64,000 nt of DNA from Candidatus Saccharimonadia bacterium (GCA_046597065.1 JBKJLI010000002.1:52071-116070); one strand, 5' to 3'. Counted from the stretch's first letter, positions 9,687-59,855 are shown. Program-made: numbers and translations. The notes: a model not told the origin generated them from the letters alone.

Positions 9687-11873
9687 GTGATGAGTATGTT
9701 GTTAAAAGATTTAAATGATCCGCAACGCCAAGCGGTGCTTCAAACCGAGGGGCCGGTGTTAATGTTGGCAGGAGCCGGTAGTGGTAAAACCAAGGCGCTA
9801 ACGCATCGGATTGCCCACTTGGTGGCCGATAAAGGTGTTTCGCCGGGACAAATACTGGCGGTAACCTTTACCAATAAAGCCGCTGGCGAGATGCGTGCGC
9901 GGGTGCTAACTCTACTAGGCAAACGGGTTGATAACCGTCATTTTTTGCCTTATATTGGCACCTTTCATTCAATATGCGTACGGATGTTGAGGCAAGATGG
10001 CGACCGGATTGGATTGAGTAAAAGTTTCAGTATTTTTGATGCTCAGGATTCACTATCGGCCACCAAGCAAGCCATGCGCCAAATTGGAATAGATGAAAAG
10101 CAGTTTTCGCCAAACTTAATATCTAACTTGATATCATCGGCCAAGAATGAACTGCTGGGCCCAGAAAGCTACGCAAAGCATGCCCATGGAGCCGCCCAAG
10201 AAGTGACAGCCAAGGTTTACCCACTGTATGAGCGTTTACTGACAGAAGCCGGCGCACTGGATTTTGATGATCTAATAATGAAAACGGTAAAAATGTTGAG
10301 CCAACCCGAACTGCTTCAAAAGTGGCAGCACCAGTTTGCTTACGTAATGATAGATGAGTATCAAGACACTAATCATGCCCAGTATCGGCTGGTAAAGCAG
10401 TTAGCCTTAAGTCATCGCAACATCTGTGTGGTTGGCGACGACTGGCAGGCTATTTATTCTTGGCGCGGTGCCAACTTTCAGAACATTCTGGATTTTGAAA
10501 AGGATTATCCCGATGCGGTGATTATCAAATTAGAGCAGAACTATCGATCGACCCAAAACATATTGGCGGCAGCCGATGCAGTGATCACTAAGAATCTGGT
10601 GCGCTCTAAAAAAGAGCTGTGGACCGATCAAGCCGACGGCGCCAAGGTGCAAGTAGTGACGGTTTATGATCAAAACCATGAGGCCGATACCATCTGTGAG
10701 TTAATTGATCGGCATGTAAGGGCAGGCGAATATAAGCTATGCGATTATGCAGTTTTATACCGAGTGGGCGCTCAGTCGCGGTCGCTAGAAGAGTCGCTAT
10801 TGCGACATAATCTGCCCTATAAGATTATTGGTGGTACGCGCTTTTATGAGCGCAAAGAGGTTAAAGACGCCCTGGCCTATCTGCGCTTTATCCATAACCC
10901 TGGTGATATCGTTAGTTTTAACCGCATTATTAATCTGCCGCCACGGGGCTTGGGCGACAAAAGCTTAGAGCGATTGGGGCAGTATCAACGCGGCCACAAT
11001 CTTAGCCTGTTAGATGCACTGCTGACTTCTAGCCAAGTCGAGAGCTTAACTCCTCGAGCACGGGAGGCTTTAATGCGTTTTTATGATCTGATTATGGGAT
11101 TACGAGGTGAAATCGAAAATCTTTCGATTGGCCAGTTGCTAGATCGGGCGCTTAAGCAAAGTGGATATATTGACTACTTAAACGACGGAAGTATTCCGGC
11201 GGCCGAGCGGTTAGAAAACATTGCCGAGTTGCTGCGAGTCTCTGAAACCTACAGCGAGCTAGGGCTAGAGGGCTTTTTAGAAGAGATTGCTCTGGTGTCA
11301 GACATCGACAACTACTCTACAGATGCTGATGCCGTTACATTGATGACGCTACATGCTGCCAAGGGGTTAGAGTTTGAGGTGGTGTTTATGCCCGGAATGG
11401 AGGAAGGGATCTTTCCTCATGGTCGTAGCGCATTTGATCAGTCCCAGCTCGAGGAAGAGCGGCGGTTGTGTTATGTGGGTATGACAAGGGCAAAACAGCG
11501 TTTGGTAATGCTTCATACCCAATCGCGCCTGCTTTATGGAGGGGTTCAGCATAATCCACCTTCGCGATTTTTGCTCGATATACCGGCGCAGCTACGTGAG
11601 GGCGATACGCTTACGGCTGGATCTACGGTTACAGCTCCTAGCCCAGAGCGGTTTGTGGGGGGTAACCCGTTTAATGATCTAGAGTTTGAAGGTTTAAGTG
11701 ACGGCTTGGCTCCAGAGAAAGCTAATCTAAAGCCAGGCGATCAAGTTAGCCATGCCAAGTTTGGAGAAGGCCTGGTGGTGTCGGTGGTTGGCGATGAACT
11801 TACGGCGACATTTGTGGGGGTTGGTACTAAAAAACTTAGTCTGTCGTTTGCACCGATTCAAAAGTTAAAATAA
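9687..11873 (+). CDS. uvrD: ATP-dependent DNA helicase UvrD/PcrA
   Basis: 728 aa; Walker A AGAGSGKT; helicase motifs (DEYQDTN, GDDWQAIY, VTLMTLHAAKGLEF). Promoter-like TTGTGACA...TGGTACAAT 8 nt before the start. Confidence 0.9.
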   Translation: MMSMLLKDLNDPQRQAVLQTEGPVLMLAGAGSGKTKALTHRIAHLVADKGVSPGQILAVTFTNKAAGEMRARVLTLLGKRVDNRHFLPYIGTFHSICVRMLRQDGDRIGLSKSFSIFDAQDSLSATKQAMRQIGIDEKQFSPNLISNLISSAKNELLGPESYAKHAHGAAQEVTAKVYPLYERLLTEAGALDFDDLIMKTVKMLSQPELLQKWQHQFAYVMIDEYQDTNHAQYRLVKQLALSHRNICVVGDDWQAIYSWRGANFQNILDFEKDYPDAVIIKLEQNYRSTQNILAAADAVITKNLVRSKKELWTDQADGAKVQVVTVYDQNHEADTICELIDRHVRAGEYKLCDYAVLYRVGAQSRSLEESLLRHNLPYKIIGGTRFYERKEVKDALAYLRFIHNPGDIVSFNRIINLPPRGLGDKSLERLGQYQRGHNLSLLDALLTSSQVESLTPRAREALMRFYDLIMGLRGEIENLSIGQLLDRALKQSGYIDYLNDGSIPAAERLENIAELLRVSETYSELGLEGFLEEIALVSDIDNYSTDADAVTLMTLHAAKGLEFEVVFMPGMEEGIFPHGRSAFDQSQLEEERRLCYVGMTRAKQRLVMLHTQSRLLYGGVQHNPPSRFLLDIPAQLREGDTLTAGSTVTAPSPERFVGGNPFNDLEFEGLSDGLAPEKANLKPGDQVSHAKFGEGLVVSVVGDELTATFVGVGTKKLSLSFAPIQKLK

Positions 11874-11897
11874 CGCCATTTATACCGCTTATGCTCC

Positions 11898-11926
11898 TTG
11901 ACATATATACCTGTAACGCTTACTAT
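11898..11926 (+). promoter_or_regulatory. Sigma70-like promoter TTGACA-17-TACTAT upstream of the RpfB-like gene; CTTATGCT motif abuts the -35
   Basis: Read directly from the sequence. Confidence 0.45.
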
Positions 11927-12166
11927 GTTTAATAGGATTTTCCAGATGTGGAGTCCCTAAAATACAAAGCCAAAATCGGTCGCTACTGACTAACTCGTGA
12001 GGCTTACATTTTAAGCAATCTCAGCACAGCGCTTCAAGCGCCTGCCGGCAGCAGTTTCCGTAAAATCCTGTCAGCTGTAGTAGGCGTTGCGTTTAGCATC
12101 ACTATTTTAGGACTTATAACGGGTTTAATCCCGCCACCAAAGTCGGCCCTGGCCGACTCATCGGCC

Positions 12167-13213
12167 GTGGTTAGCATTTATGCTGATGGCCAAAAACGGA
12201 TCGTTACATCGAACGCTCACAGCGTTGGTGAGGTACTTAAAGACAATAAAGTTGAAATATCCGAAGGTGATTTAATTGAACCAGATGTAAATACGTCGGT
12301 TTCCGAGGGCTTCTTTAATATTAATGTCTACCGGGCGCGGCCGGTAGTGGTGATTGACGGTCAGCGCGAGCTAAAGCTAAAAACGGCTTTGCAAAGCCCT
12401 AGTTTAATCGCTAAAACCGCTGGCTTAACGACTTATCCCGAAGACACTTATCGTGTTGATAACATCGACAACTTAGCTCAGCTGGCAACGGTTGGGCAAA
12501 AGATAACCATTGATCGGGCGACTCCGGTAATAATTCGTAGCGATGGCATAGACCAGCTAATTCGCACTCAACAGGCAACGGTGGGCGGCTTGCTTGATGA
12601 GCGCGATGTAGCATTGGGTCCTCAAGATGAGGTAGTGCCCCCTCGCGCAACGGCTATCACAGCCAATCTGGTGGTTACGATCAATCGGGTGCGTGTGGCA
12701 GTGGTTAAACAGACAGATGCGATCGCTCGAGCAGTGCAAACTGTTAAAGATGCCGGTTTGGCAGCTGGAGTTACCCAAGTAAAGACCGAAGGCAATGATG
12801 GTGAGCGGGTGACAACCTACCGTATTCATTATCAGAATGGCATTGAGCAAAGCCGCGACAAGCTGGATCAAGTTGTTACAAAGCAGCCTGCTACTAAAGT
12901 TGTTGTAGTAGGGATTCTCATAAATTACGGCGCCGACCCTGTTGAGCTGGGTCGACAACTGGCTGCTGAACGCGGCTGGACCGGCGATCAATGGACGGCA
13001 TTATATAGCTTATGGCAGCATGAATCGGGCTGGAACCCGGCTTCGCGCAACTTCTTTAGTGGCGCCTGTGGTATCCCTCAAGCCTATCCATGCAGCAAGA
13101 TCACCGATATGTCTACGGCAGGCCAGATAACCTGGGGTCTTAATTATATCGCCGGCAAATATGGTACCCCGGCCAACGCCTGGGCCTACTGGCAGCGAAA
13201 TCGCAGCTACTAA
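12167..13213 (+). CDS. RpfB-like cell-wall protein: DUF348 repeats + G5 domain + C-terminal transglycosylase-like domain. The true start probably lies upstream, since an in-frame TM segment is encoded before the called GTG
   Basis: VSIYADGQKRIVTSNAHSVGEVL (DUF348); TEGNDGERVTTYRIHYQNG (G5); LWQHESGWNPASRNFFSGACGIPQ. In-frame upstream ...FRKILSAVVGVAFSITILGLITGLIPPP with no ATG/GTG/TTG. Confidence 0.8.
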   Translation: MVSIYADGQKRIVTSNAHSVGEVLKDNKVEISEGDLIEPDVNTSVSEGFFNINVYRARPVVVIDGQRELKLKTALQSPSLIAKTAGLTTYPEDTYRVDNIDNLAQLATVGQKITIDRATPVIIRSDGIDQLIRTQQATVGGLLDERDVALGPQDEVVPPRATAITANLVVTINRVRVAVVKQTDAIARAVQTVKDAGLAAGVTQVKTEGNDGERVTTYRIHYQNGIEQSRDKLDQVVTKQPATKVVVVGILINYGADPVELGRQLAAERGWTGDQWTALYSLWQHESGWNPASRNFFSGACGIPQAYPCSKITDMSTAGQITWGLNYIAGKYGTPANAWAYWQRNRSY

Positions 13214-21831: not shown

Positions 21832-21980
21832 AGCAGATCCTTCCAGTGAGTTCTCTTAATCCGAAGACTTAGCAATAACAAAGTACCATAAAAGTATAGT
21901 AAGTCAAGCAGAAATTAGTAAATTCTTACTGAAGTGCAACATAAGCAGTAAAAACTATCGCGCAGTAGGAATAATACCTC

Positions 21981-22090
21981 ATGACAACCGATCAAATCCG
22001 CTCAAAAATATTTAGAGTTTATGCAGGCAAAGGGGCATACGATAGTGTCATCGGCTCCGGTGTCGGGTAGCATAGTTGCAGCTGAGGCGA
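21981..22090 (+). pseudogene. Degenerate duplicate of the alaS 5' end (about 85% identity over ~110 nt, frameshifted), followed by a fragment resembling the 5' half of the adjacent tRNA
   Basis: atgacaaccgatcaaatccgctcaaaaatatttagagtttatgcaggcaaagg... against the alaS start atgacaaccgatcaaattcgctcaaaatttttagagttcatgaagctaaaagg. The 22108-22147 fragment resembles tRNA positions about 22230-22270. Confidence 0.6.
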
Positions 22091-22145
22091 TCAAGAGGTA
22101 AGATAGACTTACTTCGCGGGCGATCCCGTCAACTCAGACGGCATT

Positions 22146-22173
22146 TAAAAAAAGACGCATCAAGCGTCTTTTT
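22146..22173. terminator. Bidirectional rho-independent terminator (AAAAAAGACGC-atcaa-GCGTCTTTTTT)
   Basis: Perfect 7-bp stem flanked by an A-run and a T-run; sits just downstream of the minus-strand tRNA. Confidence 0.65.
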
Positions 22174-22185
22174 TGTTGGGAATGA

Positions 22186-22275
22186 CTGGCGGTGGAAGTG
22201 GGATTCGAACCCACGAGAGACCTAGATCTCTGATCACTTCGCGGGTGATTCCGATAAACCACTCCGGCATTCCAC
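22186..22275 (-). tRNA. Type-II tRNA (long variable arm, G73; Ser-like) with an anomalous anticodon loop CCGCGAA: C33 and apparent anticodon GCG. Either a variant or a pseudo-tRNA
   Basis: Reverse complement GGTGGAATGCCGGAGTGGTTTATCGGAATCACCCGCGAAGTGATCAGAGATCTAGGTCTCTCGTGGGTTCGAATCCCACTTCCACCGCCA. Acceptor, D, T and 18-nt variable arms all fold. The loop is non-canonical. Confidence 0.65.
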
Positions 22276-22351
22276 CGGATGAGCCAGCCAGACCCACAAC
22301 GAGTATTTCAAATCAAGATTAAATCCCGGTTAAACTGATACAATAATTCTG

Positions 22352-24308: not shown

Positions 24309-24578
24309 TCAGTTGAGCTTACGCCGACGATTGGCGTGCCGACGATGAGCCGGGTGCTCGATGGTCTCGATGACCCTGGAGCCGGATGCGCGCAGGCGCT
24401 GCAGCTCATCGCTGACCTCGGTGATCGTGCCGCCGTAGCGGCGATCGTCCTCGATGACAACGCGACGCACTTCACGACCACCAAGGAGAGCCCGAAGCTC
24501 GTCGATGATGGTGATTGCCGGCTTGCCGTGGTTACTGGGGAGCAAAACACTCGGCTCAACAGCTGCTGCAGTGGTCAT
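24309..24578 (-). CDS. Hypothetical 89 aa protein with a basic C-terminal tail; high GC
   Basis: Strong SD AGGAGGAAcctatcATG; terminator downstream. Antisense + ORFs were rejected. Confidence 0.6.
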   Translation of the reverse strand: MTTAAAVEPSVLLPSNHGKPAITIIDELRALLGGREVRRVVIEDDRRYGGTITEVSDELQRLRASGSRVIETIEHPAHRRHANRRRKLN

Positions 24579-24785
24579 GAGATAGGTTCCTCCTGGAGGG
24601 GGTGTTCAGGATTGGGCAATTATAGCGTATATCGTTAACAATGTCAAGACATAAAAACGCAAAATAGCAAACATAGCAGGGTAGAAGTGACTAACAGCAA
24701 AAATTAAAAAACACTTGCATAAGCATAAGCGTTTCTGCTTTACTAATGCTAACAGTAGTACAAAAACAAAAAACAGGAAAAGCAA

Positions 24786-24938
24786 ATGCTGATAAATGCA
24801 GCCACCAAAGGTGGTTCGGCGATTATTGAGTTAGTGATGGCAGCAACCATCATTTTGAGTGTAGGCGCTAGCGTCTACTTTGTGCAGCACTCAGTTGGTG
24901 CAAATCGCCAAGCCGTTGCCCAAATCTCATCAAACTAG
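24786..24938 (+). CDS. Putative Flp/type IV pilin-like prepilin (50 aa, class III signal peptide G|SAIIE), not in the ORF track
   Basis: Translation MLINAATKGGSAIIELVMAATIILSVGASVYFVQHSVGANRQAVAQISSN. SD AGGAAAAG upstream. Confidence 0.45.
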   Translation: MLINAATKGGSAIIELVMAATIILSVGASVYFVQHSVGANRQAVAQISSN

Positions 24939-25045
24939 TCCCCTCTCGCCTAATTAACATAGAAAACCCCCGCATGACCTGAAGGTGCTTATGGTCAAAG
25001 CCGGGTGATCGCGGTACAATACAAAGGTGAAATTGACAGGTCAAA

Positions 25046-27973: not shown

Positions 27974-28369
27974 ATGGCTGTGATTGGCATTGATTATGGT
28001 TCGAAACGAATCGGCGTGGCTGTCAGTTTAGACGGTGAGCGCCCACAGCGCCGGGCTATATTAACCAATGATGAGGGCCTGAATAAGGCTCTAAGAGCGG
28101 CTGTGATCGAGATTGGGGCCAATACCTTGGTAGTGGGGCTTCCACGTAATTTGGACGGCGAGGACACCGCTCAGACAGCCCTGGTGCGTAAATTTGCCTT
28201 AGAACTTGAGTCTTCATTGGGCATCGATGTGGTTTTACAGGATGAAGCCGATACCAGCAACTTGGCGCGTGAGAGGCTGGAGCATCAAGGAATGCGGGGT
28301 GACGAATTATCTGCCGCGCTTGATTCGGAGGCAGCGGTGATTATTTTGGAAGATTATCTTGGAGCCTAA
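27974..28369 (+). CDS. ruvX: Holliday-junction resolvase-like / pre-16S rRNA nuclease RuvX (YqgF)
   Basis: MAVIGIDYGSKRIGVAVS... RNase H-like fold motifs. Confidence 0.85.
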   Translation: MAVIGIDYGSKRIGVAVSLDGERPQRRAILTNDEGLNKALRAAVIEIGANTLVVGLPRNLDGEDTAQTALVRKFALELESSLGIDVVLQDEADTSNLARERLEHQGMRGDELSAALDSEAAVIILEDYLGA

Positions 28370-29360
28370 GCGCTGGATGGTTTGGCTTGGTAGCTTTTTA
28401 CTGATTGTTGTATCCATCATTGTCCTTTTGATGCTGTGGTATCAGCTTCAACTGCGGCCAGTTAATGCAAAGAGCCGCCAGTCGGTTAGCTATACTCTGG
28501 TTGCTGGTACAAAGGTTGATAGGATAGCCGAGCAACTGTATGCCAAAAAATTGATCCGCAGCCAGCAAGCCTTTGTGCTGTTTGTAAGTACAACCGGCCG
28601 CCGCAGTAGGCTGCAGGCGGGTAGTTATGAATTGAGCCCAGCCAACAGTAGCCAAGAAATCGCCGAGATTATCGTTGGTGGTAAGGTGGCAGCCAACCGC
28701 TTGGTAGTGCCAGAGGGGATTACGTTGGCAAAGTTTAAGCGGGTAGCAGAGGAGTATGGGGTCGGCCAAACCGATTTAGTAGAGGCGTTGAACACCAGTT
28801 ACTCAAACAGCTTTTTAGCCAGCCGACCGGCCGGTTTAACTCTTGAAGGCTATCTATTCCCAGATAGTTATGAGTTAACTAAACCGGTGCAAGCCAAGTC
28901 ATTGGTGCAGGCAATGCTCGATAATTTTGGACGTAAATTATCCGCCAGCGATATCGAAAAGCGATACTCTCAGCAGGGGCTGACTTTGCATCAGGGCCTT
29001 ACCTTGGCATCGATTGTTGAAAAGGAGGTATCAAATGATACCGATCGGGCAATGGTAGCTCAGGTGTTCTTAAATCGCCTAAAGATCGGCCAGGCCTTAC
29101 AATCTGATGTGACGGTTGATTACGCCTCCTCGTTGGCTGGAGTTAAATTTAATTTAAGCATTGAGTCTCCATATAACACTTATCGCACTAAGGGCTTGCC
29201 CCCAAGCCCAATCTGTAGCCCCAGCCTTAGTTCGATGCAAGCGGTAGCCCGCCCCCGCCCGAATGATTACCTGTACTTTTTGGCCGATAAGCAGGGTAAA
29301 ACGCATTTTGCCAAGACATTAACCGAGCATGAACAGAACGTTCAAAAGTACCTGCGCTAA
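28359..29360 (+). CDS. mltG: Endolytic murein transglycosylase MltG (YceG family)
   Basis: N-terminal TM and YceG-like domain (SYELSPANS...GLPPSPI...YLYF). Confidence 0.85.
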   Translation: MEPKRWMVWLGSFLLIVVSIIVLLMLWYQLQLRPVNAKSRQSVSYTLVAGTKVDRIAEQLYAKKLIRSQQAFVLFVSTTGRRSRLQAGSYELSPANSSQEIAEIIVGGKVAANRLVVPEGITLAKFKRVAEEYGVGQTDLVEALNTSYSNSFLASRPAGLTLEGYLFPDSYELTKPVQAKSLVQAMLDNFGRKLSASDIEKRYSQQGLTLHQGLTLASIVEKEVSNDTDRAMVAQVFLNRLKIGQALQSDVTVDYASSLAGVKFNLSIESPYNTYRTKGLPPSPICSPSLSSMQAVARPRPNDYLYFLADKQGKTHFAKTLTEHEQNVQKYLR

Positions 29361-29466
29361 CCATAAGCGTAATTTATTAAGCAATATTTTGTCAGAAAAG
29401 TCACTAAAAACTAAAATTACAGTATAAATCTTGACTTAAAGCCTTTACAGAGCCAAAAAAGCTTGG

Positions 29467-29495
29467 TTGACAGTCATCTAGGGGCTTGCTAGTAT
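29467..29495 (+). promoter_or_regulatory. Sigma70-like promoter TTGACA-17-TAGTAT; its upstream flank plus -35 (CTTGGTTGACAGTC) is identical to the promoter at 60775-60788
   Basis: Read directly from the sequence. Confidence 0.5.
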
Positions 29496-29502
29496 TCATT
29501 TT

Positions 29503-29903
29503 GTACATTGATAAACGTAAGCGGTTTCCGACTGTCTAACAGATGGGATCACTTATGCTTATCGGTTGCCTATGCGGCTATCGTACGGAGAATTAACCTA
29601 AGGTCGAACTTCTCCCTCCTTGTAAAAACGCAAGGGAAAGACAGCCAAGTAGAGCCCACATTAAGTCCCGGCACTCGGGATGTGGGGTGGAGAAAGCTCA
29701 TTAGTAGAGAAGTTAGCAGTTCATTGCCTAGCCTCGGCTTCGGCAATCGGAACGCCAATTCCACTTCAAAACTAAAACTCAACCAAATAACCCCCTTGCA
29801 GCAGAGTCGCAAAATTACCGATCCTGCCGCACTGACCCCAATTGGTCAGACCTTGAAAGCTACCAGTTCGGTAGCGGCTAAGGTAACCTCGGTCCCTCGC
29901 ATT
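29503..29903 (+). ncRNA. Long (~400 nt) structured 5' leader of the LysM-CHAP hydrolase gene; candidate cis-regulatory RNA, possibly a ydaO/c-di-AMP-type riboswitch
   Basis: Between promoter and first plausible start. Multiple hairpins (TCCCGG-cac-TCGGGA, ATTGCC...GGCAAT). Segments CCGACTGTCTAAC and GTACGGAGAATTAACC recall ydaO conserved blocks as I remember them. Contains CACTTATGCTTAT. Confidence 0.3.
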
Positions 29904-30878
29904 ATGGCCCACGCGGCTGTTATTGCAGTGGTTGGAGCCGTGGTACTGGGGGGTTCAACCGGCCATTCGGCCCGACTTAGCCCTCTAGCCAATACCAGTA
30001 GTGGTTATGGCTCGGTGCTTGAAAAGGCTGCTGCTGTTGAAGTGGCTGCCAAGGTAGCCGAACAAACTGATCTGTTGGTAAGCACCGACGTTTCCTCCAC
30101 CGCCAAAACTTTGAATGCCTCGGTAACAATGCCGACGGCAGATGATGGCACCTTAGCTTCGCGCCAGGTTGTTGAAACAGCCGGCAATGCCACGCGTGGC
30201 ATTATTAGCTATAAGGTTGTGGCCGGCGACACGCTTTCTAGTGTAGCGGCCCAGTTTAATATCACCACTGATACCGTTCGCTGGGCTAACGGGCTCAAGG
30301 CCGACTCTAATTTAACTCCAGGTCAGGCGTTATCGGTACTCCCTATTTCTGGGCTACAACACGTTGTAGCTGCCGGCGACACCGCCGAAAGTCTTGCTTC
30401 TAAATTTCAATCCAACCCAGATCAGATAATTGCCTTTAATAATGCAGAGGTTTCCGGCCTCAAGCCAGGTAGCACAATTGTTGTGCCCGACGGCGTGATT
30501 GTAGAAGCCGCTCCTACACCAGTAGCCGCCGCACCGGTAAGGGTGGCGGTTAGTGCACCAATCCGCTTTAGCGGCGGGGCTAACGGGTACTCGTATGGTT
30601 ACTGCACCTATTATGTGGCTAGTCGACGATCGGTATCGGGCAGTTGGGGAAACGCCTACAGCTGGCTGTATGCTGCTCAAGCCGATGGCTACGGCGTTGG
30701 TAGTGCTCCACGACCAGGTGCCATTGCTTGGACCGGCGCCGGTTACTATGGCCATGTAGCCTACGTAGAGAGCGTTAGCGGCGGAATGGTGACCGTTTCC
30801 GAAATGAACTATAACGGCAACTGGAACCGCGTAACCAGCCGTACTGTATCGGCCTCTAGCTTCCGCTACATTTACTAA
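29904..30878 (+). CDS. Peptidoglycan hydrolase: N-terminal TM, two LysM domains, C-terminal CHAP domain. Start uncertain; the in-frame ORF opens at 29508
   Basis: LysM YKVVAGDTLSSVAAQF and VVAAGDTAESLASKF. CHAP Cys...His region YGYCTYYVA...GHVAYVESV. Confidence 0.8.
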   Translation: MAHAAVIAVVGAVVLGGSTGHSARLSPLANTSSGYGSVLEKAAAVEVAAKVAEQTDLLVSTDVSSTAKTLNASVTMPTADDGTLASRQVVETAGNATRGIISYKVVAGDTLSSVAAQFNITTDTVRWANGLKADSNLTPGQALSVLPISGLQHVVAAGDTAESLASKFQSNPDQIIAFNNAEVSGLKPGSTIVVPDGVIVEAAPTPVAAAPVRVAVSAPIRFSGGANGYSYGYCTYYVASRRSVSGSWGNAYSWLYAAQADGYGVGSAPRPGAIAWTGAGYYGHVAYVESVSGGMVTVSEMNYNGNWNRVTSRTVSASSFRYIY

Positions 30879-30941
30879 AATCAACCACATATCAGAAAAC
30901 CGCTCCTTATCGGGGCGGTTTTCTTTTATACTGATGGAGAT

Positions 30942-32207
30942 ATGTTTACCGATCGTGTTGAAATTCTAATCCAAGCCGGACGTGGTGGCGATGGCCGCCT
31001 GAGTTTTCGTACCGAAAAATACCGACCAAAGGGTGGTCCCGACGGTGGCGATGGTGGTCGCGGTGGAAACATTGTTTTTAGGGTTGATCATAACCTTAAC
31101 ACCCTATCTGCCTTTCGACATAAAAAGCTGCTTAAGTCAGAGCCCGGTGCCATGGGTGGCACCAATCGCCGCCATGGCAAGAATGGTGAGGATTTGATTG
31201 TTAAGGTGCCCCAGGGCACCCTGGTGACCGAGCTTGAAGGAGGAGTAGTGGCTGATTTAAGCGAGTCACAGCAAGAGCTAGTGGTGGCCAAAGGTGGTCG
31301 CGGTGGCTTTGGCAACGCCCACTTTACCAGTTCGGTACGGCAGGCTCCGCGAGCGGTAGAAGTGGGTGAAGCCGGACAGCATTTAGCGGTTACTCTAGAG
31401 CTAAAACTGGTGGCCGATATTGGATTGGTAGGCTTGCCCAATGCCGGCAAGTCAACTTTGTTATCGGTAATAAGTAATGCTAAACCAGAAATTGCCGACT
31501 ATCCCTTTACTACTCTGGTGCCAAATCTGGGTGTGGTAGATATTGATGGCGACTCGGTGATGGTAGCCGACATCCCCGGTTTAATTGAGGGGGCCAGCCA
31601 GGGCAAGGGCTTGGGCGATGACTTTTTACGCCACATTGAGCGCACGGCAGTGATTCTGCATCTGATTGACGCTCACAGCCAGGACGTGGCGGCCGATTAT
31701 AAAACGATTCAGGGGGAGTTAAAAGATTACGCTATAGACTTAACAGCAAAACCTCAACTGGTAGCGCTAACCAAATGCGAGGGTGTTGATGTTAAGGATC
31801 TAAAAGCCAAGCAACTAACGCTAAAAAAAGCCTCAAAGCAAACCATCCAAACGATTTCGGCAGTAGCCGGGCAGGGCGTGACTGAGCTGTTGCGATCGGC
31901 TATGCCTCTTGTAATTGCCGAGCGTCAGCGCCGCGCAGAGCTCCAGGCAGTTGAGGCTGTTCACGTGTTCGACGAAGCCTCTCAGCCAGAACTGTGGCGG
32001 GTGACTTGTGAGGGTCGTATATTCAAGGTTCGGGGAGATAAAATTGAGGGTTTTGCTCGCCGCACAAACTGGGATAACGACGAGTCGGTTGATCGCTTGC
32101 GCGACATTATGCGCAAACAGGGGATTGCCCGCGAACTGCAGCGTTTGGGTATTGAGCACGAGGACATCATCGAGATCGCCGGCCATGAACTGCAGTGGAT
32201 CGGCTAG
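30942..32207 (+). CDS. obg: GTPase Obg/CgtA
   Basis: Obg fold with Gly-rich GGDGG repeats; G1 GLPNAGKST; DIPGLIEGA. Confidence 0.95.
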   Translation: MFTDRVEILIQAGRGGDGRLSFRTEKYRPKGGPDGGDGGRGGNIVFRVDHNLNTLSAFRHKKLLKSEPGAMGGTNRRHGKNGEDLIVKVPQGTLVTELEGGVVADLSESQQELVVAKGGRGGFGNAHFTSSVRQAPRAVEVGEAGQHLAVTLELKLVADIGLVGLPNAGKSTLLSVISNAKPEIADYPFTTLVPNLGVVDIDGDSVMVADIPGLIEGASQGKGLGDDFLRHIERTAVILHLIDAHSQDVAADYKTIQGELKDYAIDLTAKPQLVALTKCEGVDVKDLKAKQLTLKKASKQTIQTISAVAGQGVTELLRSAMPLVIAERQRRAELQAVEAVHVFDEASQPELWRVTCEGRIFKVRGDKIEGFARRTNWDNDESVDRLRDIMRKQGIARELQRLGIEHEDIIEIAGHELQWIG

Positions 32208-47617: not shown

Positions 47618-48199
47618 CTAATTGATGGTGTATGAACCATCAAAGTGCCCAATCAAGCTAACTCCCATGTTGTGCGCATCCACGCGGACGCATCCGAATG
47701 GTGTTGGAAAACAGCGCTTGAAGTCAACCTGGACCGAGGATCGGTGGCCGCCTTGCGGATATCCCTTGTAGTAGTAATAACCGTTGCTTTGGCTACCCAT
47801 CCCTTCGTCGTTCCATTGAAGAAGTGCACCGATTGTGGTGACTCCGTACTGGATCTTTGGAGCGGGTGTTTGGGTCACCCTATGTGACTTGCGGCTGTAG
47901 CACCACGTCTTGGTGAGCCTCACCCAGAACATGGTACCGGCCAGGGCGTGAAACTTGCGATACGCCCAGTGGGTGGCACATGCCTCGCGCTTATTGCGAG
48001 AGGCTGCCTGTGCTTGCCCGACGGTAGTGCTGATGTACAACAGCTGTCCTTTCTTGATCCAGGCAGCAGACGGGTGCTTGGGCGTCGCACCTTGTGAAGT
48101 GGAATCACTTCCGCTCCCAAGCACGAACCCGATCACGTAGACGACCGTCATGATCACCAAGATCCAGATCAGGATCTTCTTCCAGTTCCAGTCTTTCAT
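47618..48199 (-). CDS. Hypothetical secreted or membrane-anchored protein (193 aa), high GC
   Basis: Strong SD AGGAGGAGG; N-terminal TM/signal; no family recognised. Confidence 0.6.
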   Translation of the reverse strand: MKDWNWKKILIWILVIMTVVYVIGFVLGSGSDSTSQGATPKHPSAAWIKKGQLLYISTTVGQAQAASRNKREACATHWAYRKFHALAGTMFWVRLTKTWCYSRKSHRVTQTPAPKIQYGVTTIGALLQWNDEGMGSQSNGYYYYKGYPQGGHRSSVQVDFKRCFPTPFGCVRVDAHNMGVSLIGHFDGSYTIN

Positions 48200-52018: not shown

Positions 52019-52048
52019 CAACTCTGTTCCGGCAGAAGGGAGGTTGAA

Positions 52049-52237
52049 GTGCTGGCAATTGGTGCAGTAGTAGGTGGGGTGGCTATTTTGCTGTTTACGC
52101 TTTCGGTGCATCTTCGAGATCATCGTCGGGCTACAAACGGCAACAGCCCATCAAGCTTCAAACGTGTCGCCTGCGATCTCGCAGGAAGTGTCGGGCTGCT
52201 GTTTTTTTGCATCGGCATCGGTGCCATTCTGTTTTAA
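52049..52237 (+). CDS. Small membrane protein (62 aa, GTG start with GGGAGG SD)
   Basis: Two hydrophobic segments; a terminator lies downstream at 52272-52296. Confidence 0.4.
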   Translation: MLAIGAVVGGVAILLFTLSVHLRDHRRATNGNSPSSFKRVACDLAGSVGLLFFCIGIGAILF

Positions 52238-52271
52238 CAACCCCAAAGGTTTCGACAATGTCGACGTTCTT

Positions 52272-52296
52272 GTCCCGCGCGGTAGCGGGACTTTTT
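52272..52296 (+). terminator. Rho-independent terminator GTCCCGC-gcggta-GCGGGAC + TTTTT
   Basis: Read directly from the sequence. Confidence 0.6.
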
Positions 52297-52324
52297 AATT
52301 GGGAATGATTTTGAGGCGTATAAT

Positions 52325-59536: not shown

Positions 59537-59596
59537 AACAGGTGTAGTTGGGCTATTGCCAACTTCGCTATAATAGATATAGTAAGGAAAAATTCT

Positions 59597-59854
59597 ATGA
59601 GCAAAGTTAAAAACATCAAAATTTATAGCACCCGTACTTGCGCTTACTGCCATGCTGAAAAGGAGTATTTAAAGCAACATAATGTCGCATTTGAAGACAT
59701 TCGGGTCGACGAAAACGAGCAGGCGGCCCAAGAAATGGTAGCTATGAGTGGGCAGATGGCCGTGCCATTTACGGTTATTACCAAAGAGGATGGCTCGGTT
59801 GAGAGGATTTTGGGCTTTGACCAGCCGCGGATTGCCGCAAGTTTAGGTCTGTAG
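59597..59854 (+). CDS. Glutaredoxin-like / NrdH-type redoxin (CxxC thioredoxin fold)
   Basis: CAYCHAEK active site; 85 aa; TATAAT and SD upstream. Confidence 0.7.
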   Translation: MSKVKNIKIYSTRTCAYCHAEKEYLKQHNVAFEDIRVDENEQAAQEMVAMSGQMAVPFTVITKEDGSVERILGFDQPRIAASLGL

Positions 59855-59855
59855 C

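Follow-up and report, generated by a model that had tools for sequence, protein, structure and literature searches.

Genes for LysM/CHAP hydrolases are typical targets of ydaO riboswitches (RF00379), whose crystal structures show a pseudo-two-fold arrangement of two three-helix junctions. Another leader, the orphan lysM-TM7 motif (RF03005), was suspected by its discoverers to respond to cyclic di-AMP (c-di-AMP) on the basis of the function of the genes that it precedes, and no c-di-AMP binding was seen (Weinberg et al. 2017, PMC5737381). The lysM-Actino, lysM-Prevotella and M23 motifs were likewise proposed to be c-di-AMP-related, and none of them bound c-di-AMP (PMC5737381). Concerning translation starts, AUA, AUC and AUU initiate at 1-2% of AUG in Escherichia coli, where the confirmed AUU starts are those of infC and pcnB only (bioRxiv 10.1101/063800), and initiation factor 3 (IF3) discriminates against AUU and AUA (PMC9723500). 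Here we analyse a stretch of 64,000 nucleotides (nt) from Candidatus Saccharimonadia bacterium (GCA_046597065.1 JBKJLI010000002.1:52071-116070), called the window below, in which the gene of a LysM-CHAP peptidoglycan hydrolase is preceded by a structured RNA leader. We consider it reasonably probable that this leader is a divergent lysM-TM7 RNA coupled to a start codon of the AUH type (AUU, AUC or AUA), and that it controls translation initiation in cis.

The locus resembles lysM-TM7 in its host group (TM7/Saccharibacteria), in its position in the 5′ untranslated region (UTR) of a LysM-domain hydrolase gene, in the P1/P1a-P2-P3 junction followed by a 3′ hairpin and GGAG, and in the blocks UCGUACGG, AGGUCGA, GAAAGAC and GGAG. 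It differs by a P2 loop of ~17 nt, against ~50 nt in the Rfam consensus, by a weak P1, by two features outside the Rfam model, namely an invariant 5′ block and a conserved hairpin at the 5′ end (P0), and by a conserved AUH start, which is absent from the main text of PMC5737381. With ydaO it shares the nature of a cis-regulatory leader of genes for cell-wall hydrolases in bacteria that lack an outer membrane, whereas neither sequence nor structure matches, the window RNA being one three-way junction with flanking hairpins. The lysM-Actino, lysM-Prevotella and M23 motifs are also orphan structured leaders of cell-wall hydrolase genes; they belong to other phyla, have other folds and give no match in the window at E≤10. 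Finally, the AUU starts of infC and pcnB in E. coli are near-cognate starts kept by selection, and by analogy a low efficiency and a sensitivity to IF3 would be expected here. Unlike infC, the window gene encodes a hydrolase; instead of regulating itself, it would be responsive to IF3 or to initiation fidelity, and its family uses AUU, AUC and AUA, coupled with a large conserved structured leader.

Family membership of the leader RNA

In species-representative genomes, 79 orthologous loci with relatives of the LysM-CHAP protein were collected. Nearly all of the closest ~35 are titled Candidatus Saccharimonadia, Saccharibacteria or Patescibacteria metagenome-assembled genomes (MAGs), and the farther matches include other Patescibacteria, e.g. 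Moraniibacteriota and Berkelbacteria. At gathering thresholds, Rfam found only tRNAs in the whole window. When the region 29380-29960 (581 nt) was searched in isolation, with permissive filters and E≤10, the best match was RF03005 at 29568-29692, over the full model length, with 24.7 bits and E 0.027; the other matches (MIAT, mir-24, gut-2) were rejected as noise. In L025, an ortholog of the same gene from a marine Saccharibacteria MAG, RF03005 scores 76.7 bits at the equivalent position, which is above gathering, and the relatives give graded scores: 51.6 bits (E 2e-6) in L002, the sister of the window, 30.5 in L023 and 28.8 in L022. The sister clade, which carries the junction UCGA(A/U)ACGAA, is not detected by RF03005. 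A covariance model, R1, was built from nine leaders of this sister clade, window excluded, with the junction annotated by hand. It matches the window at 29566-29711 over the full model (57.8 bits, E 9e-12), as well as 18 other orthologous leaders, and nothing further in the window. A second model, R2, which includes the window clade, matches L025 at 1270-1457 with 19.6 bits, i.e. at the coordinates of the Rfam match there. Neither R1 nor R2 revealed another copy of the element elsewhere in the window at E≤5, e.g. upstream of the RpfB-like gene discussed below. The parts of the RNA are as follows.

29507-29566, plus strand: P0, 5′-terminal hairpin, at whose base the extreme 5′ end pairs with the bases just before P1
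29566-29692, plus strand: lysM-TM7-like core, three-way junction (RF03005 and R1 matches, covariation, RNAalifold)
29570-73/29649-52, plus strand: P1, weak, 4 base pairs (bp)
29576-82/29640-46, plus strand: P1a
29583-29586, plus strand: junction strand J1a/2, invariant GUAC
29587-92/29610-15, plus strand: P2
29593-29609, plus strand: conserved loop L2, UUAACCUAAGGUCGAAC, with invariant UUAACC..AGGUCGAA
29618-22/29631-35, plus strand: P3
29636-42, plus strand: conserved block GAAAGAC
29655-61/29680-86, plus strand: P4, hairpin that separates the junction from the Shine-Dalgarno sequence (SD); CCCACAU...AUGUGGG, inner stem CCCG/CGGG

All the blocks of RF03005 are present in the window (CGUACG at 29582-87, AGGUCGA at 29601-07, GAAAGAC at 29636-42 and GGAG at 29689-92), and the conserved blocks align in a MAFFT alignment of the orthologous leaders. 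The secondary structure is that of the family according to the RF03005 alignment, minimum free energy (MFE) folding and RNAalifold, with P1/P1a around P2 and P3, then a 3′ hairpin and a terminal GGAG; so is the context, the 5′ UTR of a lysM gene in TM7. The sequence-only reading, an earlier annotation made from this DNA alone, had described a structured leader with stable hairpins, and this is borne out: the window leader folds with an MFE of -65.9 kcal/mol (z = -2.46; 3 out of 200 dinucleotide shuffles fold equally well), and its helices covary across orthologs. In an alignment of 19 sequences, 93.4% of the cells are paired, compared to 78% in column shuffles and ~47% after the partners had been shifted by 1-3 columns. 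Double-sided, compensatory changes affect 15 of the 20 pairs of the three-way junction, and 57 compensatory cells were counted where shuffles give 15.2, none of 500 shuffles reaching 57. RNAalifold on plain MAFFT alignments recovered P1a, P2 and P3 independently, with compensatory changes, and P0 and P4 when restricted to the clade of the window. Many unpaired nucleotides of the junction and of L2 are invariant (UCG.ACG, UUAAC, AGGUCGA, GAAAGAC).

The two flanking hairpins vary more. P0, which lies outside the Rfam model, has a conserved 5′ strand and a variable apex; individual folds of 16 orthologs show the same hairpin, AAAUUG/CAAUUU being replaced, for instance, by AAAUCG/CGAUUU. P4, which ends 2 nt upstream of the SD, is optional in the family, since out of 19 aligned leaders 5 lack it (6 rows if the partly aligned L020 is included); where present in orthologs its stems covary (CUCAUCCCGA/UCGGGAUGGG, UCUCGCC/GGCGAGA). 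The first transcript bases, GUA(C) at 29503-29506, are invariant in the family, and within the clade of the window a pairing is possible between them and the junction GUAC at 29583-29586. This pairing (RNAalifold pairs 1-4 with 90-93) shows no covariation, and it would be either pseudoknotted with P1/P1a or alternative to them.

Given the high score of L025 and the graded scores of the relatives, the matches of R1 and R2 and the covarying structure, we read the weak RF03005 match as homology and not as chance. We are thus highly confident that the leader, although divergent, is homologous to the orphan lysM-TM7 motif, with which it belongs by homology, architecture, conserved blocks and context. 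It is not a new class, since both the family and the c-di-AMP hypothesis, with its negative outcome, are already published. The general idea that a conserved structured cis-regulatory leader, a riboswitch candidate, precedes the peptidoglycan hydrolase gene is supported. A search of metagenomes with the pattern TCGTACGN{10,40}AGGTCGA gave 120 matches; none of 80 loci (L080-L159) fits R1, so that these matches are attributed to chance, the pattern being too short for that collection.

The start codon and transcript of the LysM-CHAP gene

The evidence on the start codon comes from 19 aligned orthologous upstream regions, a tally of codons over 25 loci and a survey of stops over 18 loci. In the 19 regions, an invariant (G)UGGAG is followed after 6-7 nt by AT[T/C/A]-AGU-AGA-GA in the hydrolase frame. 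The spacing from SD to start is 6-7 nt in 25 out of 25 loci, where the codon is ATT in 16, ATC in 8, ATA in 1, and never ATG, GTG or TTG. The codon just upstream of the AUH is unconstrained (ATT, GTT, AGT, CTT, CTC, ACC, CAC). In-frame stops are met 6 nt upstream of the AUH in L001 and L024, 21 nt upstream in L006, L013 and L017, and within 100 nt in 16 of the 18 orthologs. Downstream, no canonical start appears in frame over 126-195 nt in 6 of the 18 loci (L004, L006, L014, L017, L019, L022). The N-terminal peptide is conserved from the AUH onward, as ISR(D/E)ALSVSL(D/E)QFP...SFSNIKTP, or ISREVSSSLP...SKLKL in the window clade, and within the first 16 codons of the sister clade the differences at the three codon positions number 91/79/257, with 175 synonymous versus 136 non-synonymous changes. 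None of 120 database homologs starts with Met at the AUH residue; the 35 upstream-extended entries among them all have Ile there and mostly begin from a GTG inside the SD ('MGWRK-ISRE'), and the remaining ones begin at assorted downstream codons.

We conclude from these comparisons that translation of the LysM-CHAP gene very probably starts at AUU 29700. It would follow that 29700-29903 is coding, that ATG 29904 is an internal Met and that the 5′ UTR measures ~197 nt. The segment 29700-29903 corresponds to an N-terminal cytoplasmic tail of 68 residues before a membrane helix, which begins at ~29904. The sequence-only reading had placed the start near 29904, behind a leader of ~400 nt, and this has to be corrected accordingly; its statement that the leader lacks coding potential holds for 29508-29699, where 16 of the 18 orthologs have stops, and fails for 29700-29903. 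The open frame of the window over 29508-29699 is, judged by the orthologs, apparently an accident. A start at the GTG at -18 (29682) was discarded, as in L001, L004, L006 and L013 this codon either lies in another frame or runs into a stop. A literature search on non-canonical starts in Saccharibacteria found nothing relevant. In L025, at 1439-1452, an in-frame ATA comes 7 nt after the terminal GGAG, without a canonical codon within 18 nt, and the next canonical start (TTG) comes 35 nt downstream of the GGAG. This single case (n=1) hints that AUH starts extend to canonical lysM-TM7 members. The features of the transcription unit are listed below.

29467-29495, plus strand: sigma-70-type promoter, -35 TTGACA at 29467-72, 17-nt spacer, extended -10 TGcTAGTAT at 29487-95
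~29503-29699, plus strand: predicted 5′ UTR of ~197 nt, with the onset of conservation at GUACAUUGAUAAACGUAAGCG and a transcription start site (TSS) at ~29501-29503
29689-29694, plus strand: SD GGAG(AA), in a (G)UGGAG context near-invariant in the family
29700-29702, plus strand: probable non-canonical start codon AUU, 7 nt past GGAG (29689-92)
29700-30878, plus strand: LysM-CHAP peptidoglycan hydrolase, coding sequence of 392 codons plus stop from the probable start
30894-30924, plus strand: terminator-like hairpin and U-tract, intrinsic type, 3′ of the LysM-CHAP gene, 13-bp stem with 7 GC pairs

The near-consensus promoter TTGACA-17-TAGTAT, already noticed in the sequence-only reading, matches the consensus at 10 out of 12 positions and has the extended -10 TG. 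A scan of the window gave 3 such sites where 2.1 are expected, so that a lone match is unremarkable; we judge the promoter real because its position is conserved in orthologs, and not because of the single match in the window. It is kept in place in all examined orthologs with the RNA element, as TTGACA-17-TAGACT/TAGTAT/TACACT, and 6-7 nt past the -10 all orthologs have a conserved block, GUA(A/C)AUUGAUAAGCGU(A/U)AGCG. From this onset of conservation we infer the TSS, which would lie at ~29501-29503. The downstream gene was rightly recognised as a LysM-CHAP hydrolase, Pfam giving two LysM domains (1.8e-20) and a CHAP domain (1.4e-18). The gene is monocistronic, with yceG/mltG (28359-29360) on one side and obg (30942-32207) on the other, and the interval shown above comprises its control region and 5′ end.

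Mode of action and rival explanations

In the mechanism that we propose, the conserved sigma-70-type promoter would yield an mRNA with a 5′ UTR of ~197 nt, which would fold into P0, the three-way junction P1/P1a-P2-P3 and P4, followed by GGAG and then AUU. The junction RNA would act in cis on translation initiation, an effector, small molecule or protein, stabilising or remodelling the junction beside the SD and thus altering 30S access. The AUH start would hold the basal initiation of a potentially lethal autolysin low and, by analogy with infC, it may be sensitive to IF3-dependent start-codon proofreading, which would couple the hydrolase to initiation fidelity. A binding pocket for a small molecule or protein is suggested by the invariance of the junction nucleotides, and the SD directly adjoins the P4/P1 helices. 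Neither a terminator scan nor the alignment revealed a terminator-like stem and U-tract inside the leader. The mode of action is presumably translational, rather than through stability, and the existence of an effector is likewise presumed; taken together, we give effector-responsive translational control slightly less than an even chance.

A number of observations weigh against this reading. The score of the window, 24.7 bits, is below the gathering score of RF03005 (61.5), its P1 of 4 bp is weak and flagged as non-canonical in the RF03005 alignment, and the alignment used for covariation had been fitted to the model structure. The probability of the SD being unpaired ranges from 0.01 to 0.99 across 15 orthologs in MFE and partition-function folding, so that SD sequestration is inconsistent, and no expression platform was identified in the window leader or in the 15 ortholog folds. 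Those representatives of the family that had been assayed were negative for c-di-AMP (PMC5737381). As to the start, variation between AUU, AUC and AUA is equally expected of a synonymous internal Ile codon, and the assignment therefore depends on stops upstream, on where conservation begins and on the SD spacing; moreover the frame of the window is open back to 29493, with TTG at 29508 and TTG at +24 (29724), so that the window alone cannot prove the AUU start.

Two candidate pairings were rejected. The 3′ strand of P2, UUCUCC (29610-15), complements the SD GGAGAA, and its 5′ strand mimics the SD; such an anti-SD switch, which would sequester the SD, was not retained, as the sister clade has CUUCUG and the predicted SD accessibility is inconsistent. 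In the sister clade the 5′ block UGAUAA could pair with UUAUCA/UUAUUA around the start, and this pairing fails in the window clade. Separately, codons 3-10 of the sister clade (L004-L013, L017; ~+6 to +40 from the start codon) form a conserved hairpin, GAGAUGC...GCGUCUC, which is not present in the window. In several members of that clade, the UCUCC of the V-S-L codons is predicted to pair with the SD GGAGA with a probability of 0.8-0.99. On these folds, the hairpin could be a clade-specific SD-occluding element within the coding region.

The main rival explanation is a structured leader without effector, which would serve as mRNA stabiliser, as ribosome standby or positioning platform for the weak AUH, or as thermosensor, any regulation then being exerted solely through the AUH start and IF3. 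A 5′-terminal hairpin is a typical design of mRNA stabilisers, and P0 begins with the first bases of the transcript; folding predicts neither an alternative pairing nor a sequestration of the SD with any consistency, the SD stands directly at the end of stacked helices, and since strong SDs are rare in the genome a special initiation device is plausible. What this explanation leaves unaccounted for are the invariant unpaired nucleotides of the junction and L2, which exceed the needs of a stabiliser or standby site and are typical of ligand- or protein-binding pockets, and we hold it to be rather unlikely. A quite different rival concerns the start: translation could begin at ATG 29904, or the whole ORF (open reading frame) 29508-30878 could be translated, AT[T/C/A]AGUAGAGA being conserved at the RNA level only. 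Indeed, 29904 is the first ATG, the frame of the window is open from 29493, and the AGUAGA after the AUH is more invariant than the amino acids demand. This is difficult to reconcile with the third-position substitution bias and the conserved peptide run from the AUH onward, or with the 'SFSNIKTP/SKLKL' peptide and membrane helix that precede the first canonical start of many orthologs; ATG 29904 has no SD, and it lies at the edge of the membrane helix, so that a start there would remove the positively charged flank. The longer ORF, for its part, meets in-frame stops of the orthologs in the region equivalent to 29508-29699. We regard a start other than AUU 29700 along these lines as highly improbable.

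The sequence-only reading had favoured a ydaO-type riboswitch, in which the leader would bind c-di-AMP and repress the hydrolase gene. The class of the gene, a LysM/CHAP hydrolase, fits, and a conserved ACGG/ACGA element is loosely like ydaO. The same reasoning led Weinberg et al. to put lysM-TM7 among 'c-di-AMP-related motifs' (PMC5737381). Against it stand the results of the search, since RF00379 gave no match at gathering in the whole window, nor at E≤10 on the isolated region 29380-29960 or on 11800-12300, and the best match of the leader was the sub-threshold RF03005. The architecture does not agree either, one single three-way junction being found instead of a pseudo-symmetric double junction, and lysM-TM7 RNAs were without observed c-di-AMP binding (PMC5737381). 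Of the two segments proposed as ydaO-like blocks, CCGACTGTCTAAC (29528-29540) falls in the variable apex of P0 and is not conserved; GTACGGAGAATTAACC (29583-29598) is truly conserved, as the J/P2/L2 block of the lysM-TM7 core. A ydaO riboswitch at this locus is thus extremely improbable, and the divergent lysM-TM7 leader with its AUH start is the interpretation that we retain.

Strong SDs, the RpfB-like gene and significance for Saccharimonadia

The window was examined for similar arrangements on the basis of 63 ORF-based gene calls, the start being the first canonical codon. A strong SD (GGAG, GAGG or AGGA, 4-10 nt upstream) precedes 11 of the 63 called starts, and since strong SDs are this rare, the SD of the LysM-CHAP gene is exceptional. 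If a trivial case at 3 nt from an ATG is set aside, the only called start with an in-frame SD+AUH candidate upstream of it was that of the RpfB-like gene, the AUU start of the LysM-CHAP gene having been established separately by comparative evidence. The SD+AUH arrangement thus concerns both hydrolase genes of the window, the start of the RpfB-like gene being only probable, and is not found in the other 61 genes. In the ORF 47618-48199 (minus strand), the frame is open for 90 nt before the first canonical start, and 249 nt separate this ORF from its neighbour; it yielded no SD+AUH candidate. Elsewhere in this compact genome, long intergenic gaps (~300-520 nt) were seen at 21832-22351, 24560-25045, 59537-59855 and 52019-52324. 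Two of the four separate divergent genes, and none of the four contains an Rfam family at gathering threshold.

The product of the RpfB-like gene has DUF348 and G5 domains, and the promoter reported upstream of it in the sequence-only reading is present:

11899-11927, plus strand: promoter of the RpfB-like gene, TTGACA-17-TACTAT

It is largely kept in two relatives, which share the -35, the spacer and the beginning of the -10. The frame of the gene is open from TGA 11987, without a canonical start; GAGG at 11999-12002 is followed 5 nt on by an in-frame ATT at 12008, and the product of 12008-12166, ILSNLSTALQAPAGSSFRKILSAVVGVAFSITILGLITGLIPPPK, is conserved among homologs. At the TGA codon of the window, the closest relative, L200, has TAG; it keeps GTGAGGCTTAT-ATT and likewise has no canonical start before the helix. 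In the more distant L201, the corresponding codon is CAA and the start is at an upstream ATG (MWSPQKHKAKTVAFQVTREAYILS), of which the window bears a remnant of 4 codons, from ATG 11946 to TAA ('MWSP*'), together with a 1-nt deletion. From the sequences of two genomes, it is plausible that the RpfB-like gene starts at AUU 12008 and not at GTG 12167. Its supposedly long leader would then be mostly coding, behind the probable AUU start; it gave no Rfam match (E≤10, 11800-12300) and none with R1 or R2.

Public annotations handle both genes differently. The LysM-CHAP gene is called as P0121 from TTG 29724 (384 residues), the RpfB-like gene as P0001 from GTG 12167 (348 residues, no membrane anchor), and the lengths of homologs scatter from 289 to 446 residues. 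We attribute these starts and this scatter to gene callers ignoring AUH and taking the first convenient canonical codon. Public annotations thus truncate or mis-extend the LysM-CHAP hydrolase and the RpfB-like protein, and for the LysM-CHAP hydrolase genes, whose start appears to be a conserved AUH, mis-annotation would be widespread.

Compared to the sources consulted, three points are new: the breadth of the family in environmental Saccharimonadia, the extension by P0 and the 5′ block, and the strictly conserved AUH start. LysM-TM7 reaches well beyond Rfam detection, whole environmental Saccharimonadia clades being sub-threshold or unmatched, and ~20 new diverse sequences with an extended architecture (P0, 5′ block) become available for ligand hunting. 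An AUH in every ortholog, and never an AUG, is rare in bacteria. It suggests that in these epibiotic, host-associated bacteria with reduced genomes, for which cell wall remodelling is critical, the dosage of the autolysin is controlled at initiation. A broader and more speculative proposal, which we think unlikely as it stands, is that Saccharimonadia place peptidoglycan hydrolase genes behind AUH starts with unusually strong SDs, the LysM-CHAP gene adding a lysM-TM7 RNA, so that the autolysin would be gated jointly by initiation fidelity and by an RNA effector. If true, the initiation-fidelity gate would report IF3 or ribosome status, i.e. the growth state. Non-AUG initiation would then have its first regulon-like use apart from infC, and the function of an orphan riboswitch candidate of the candidate phyla radiation (CPR) would become accessible.

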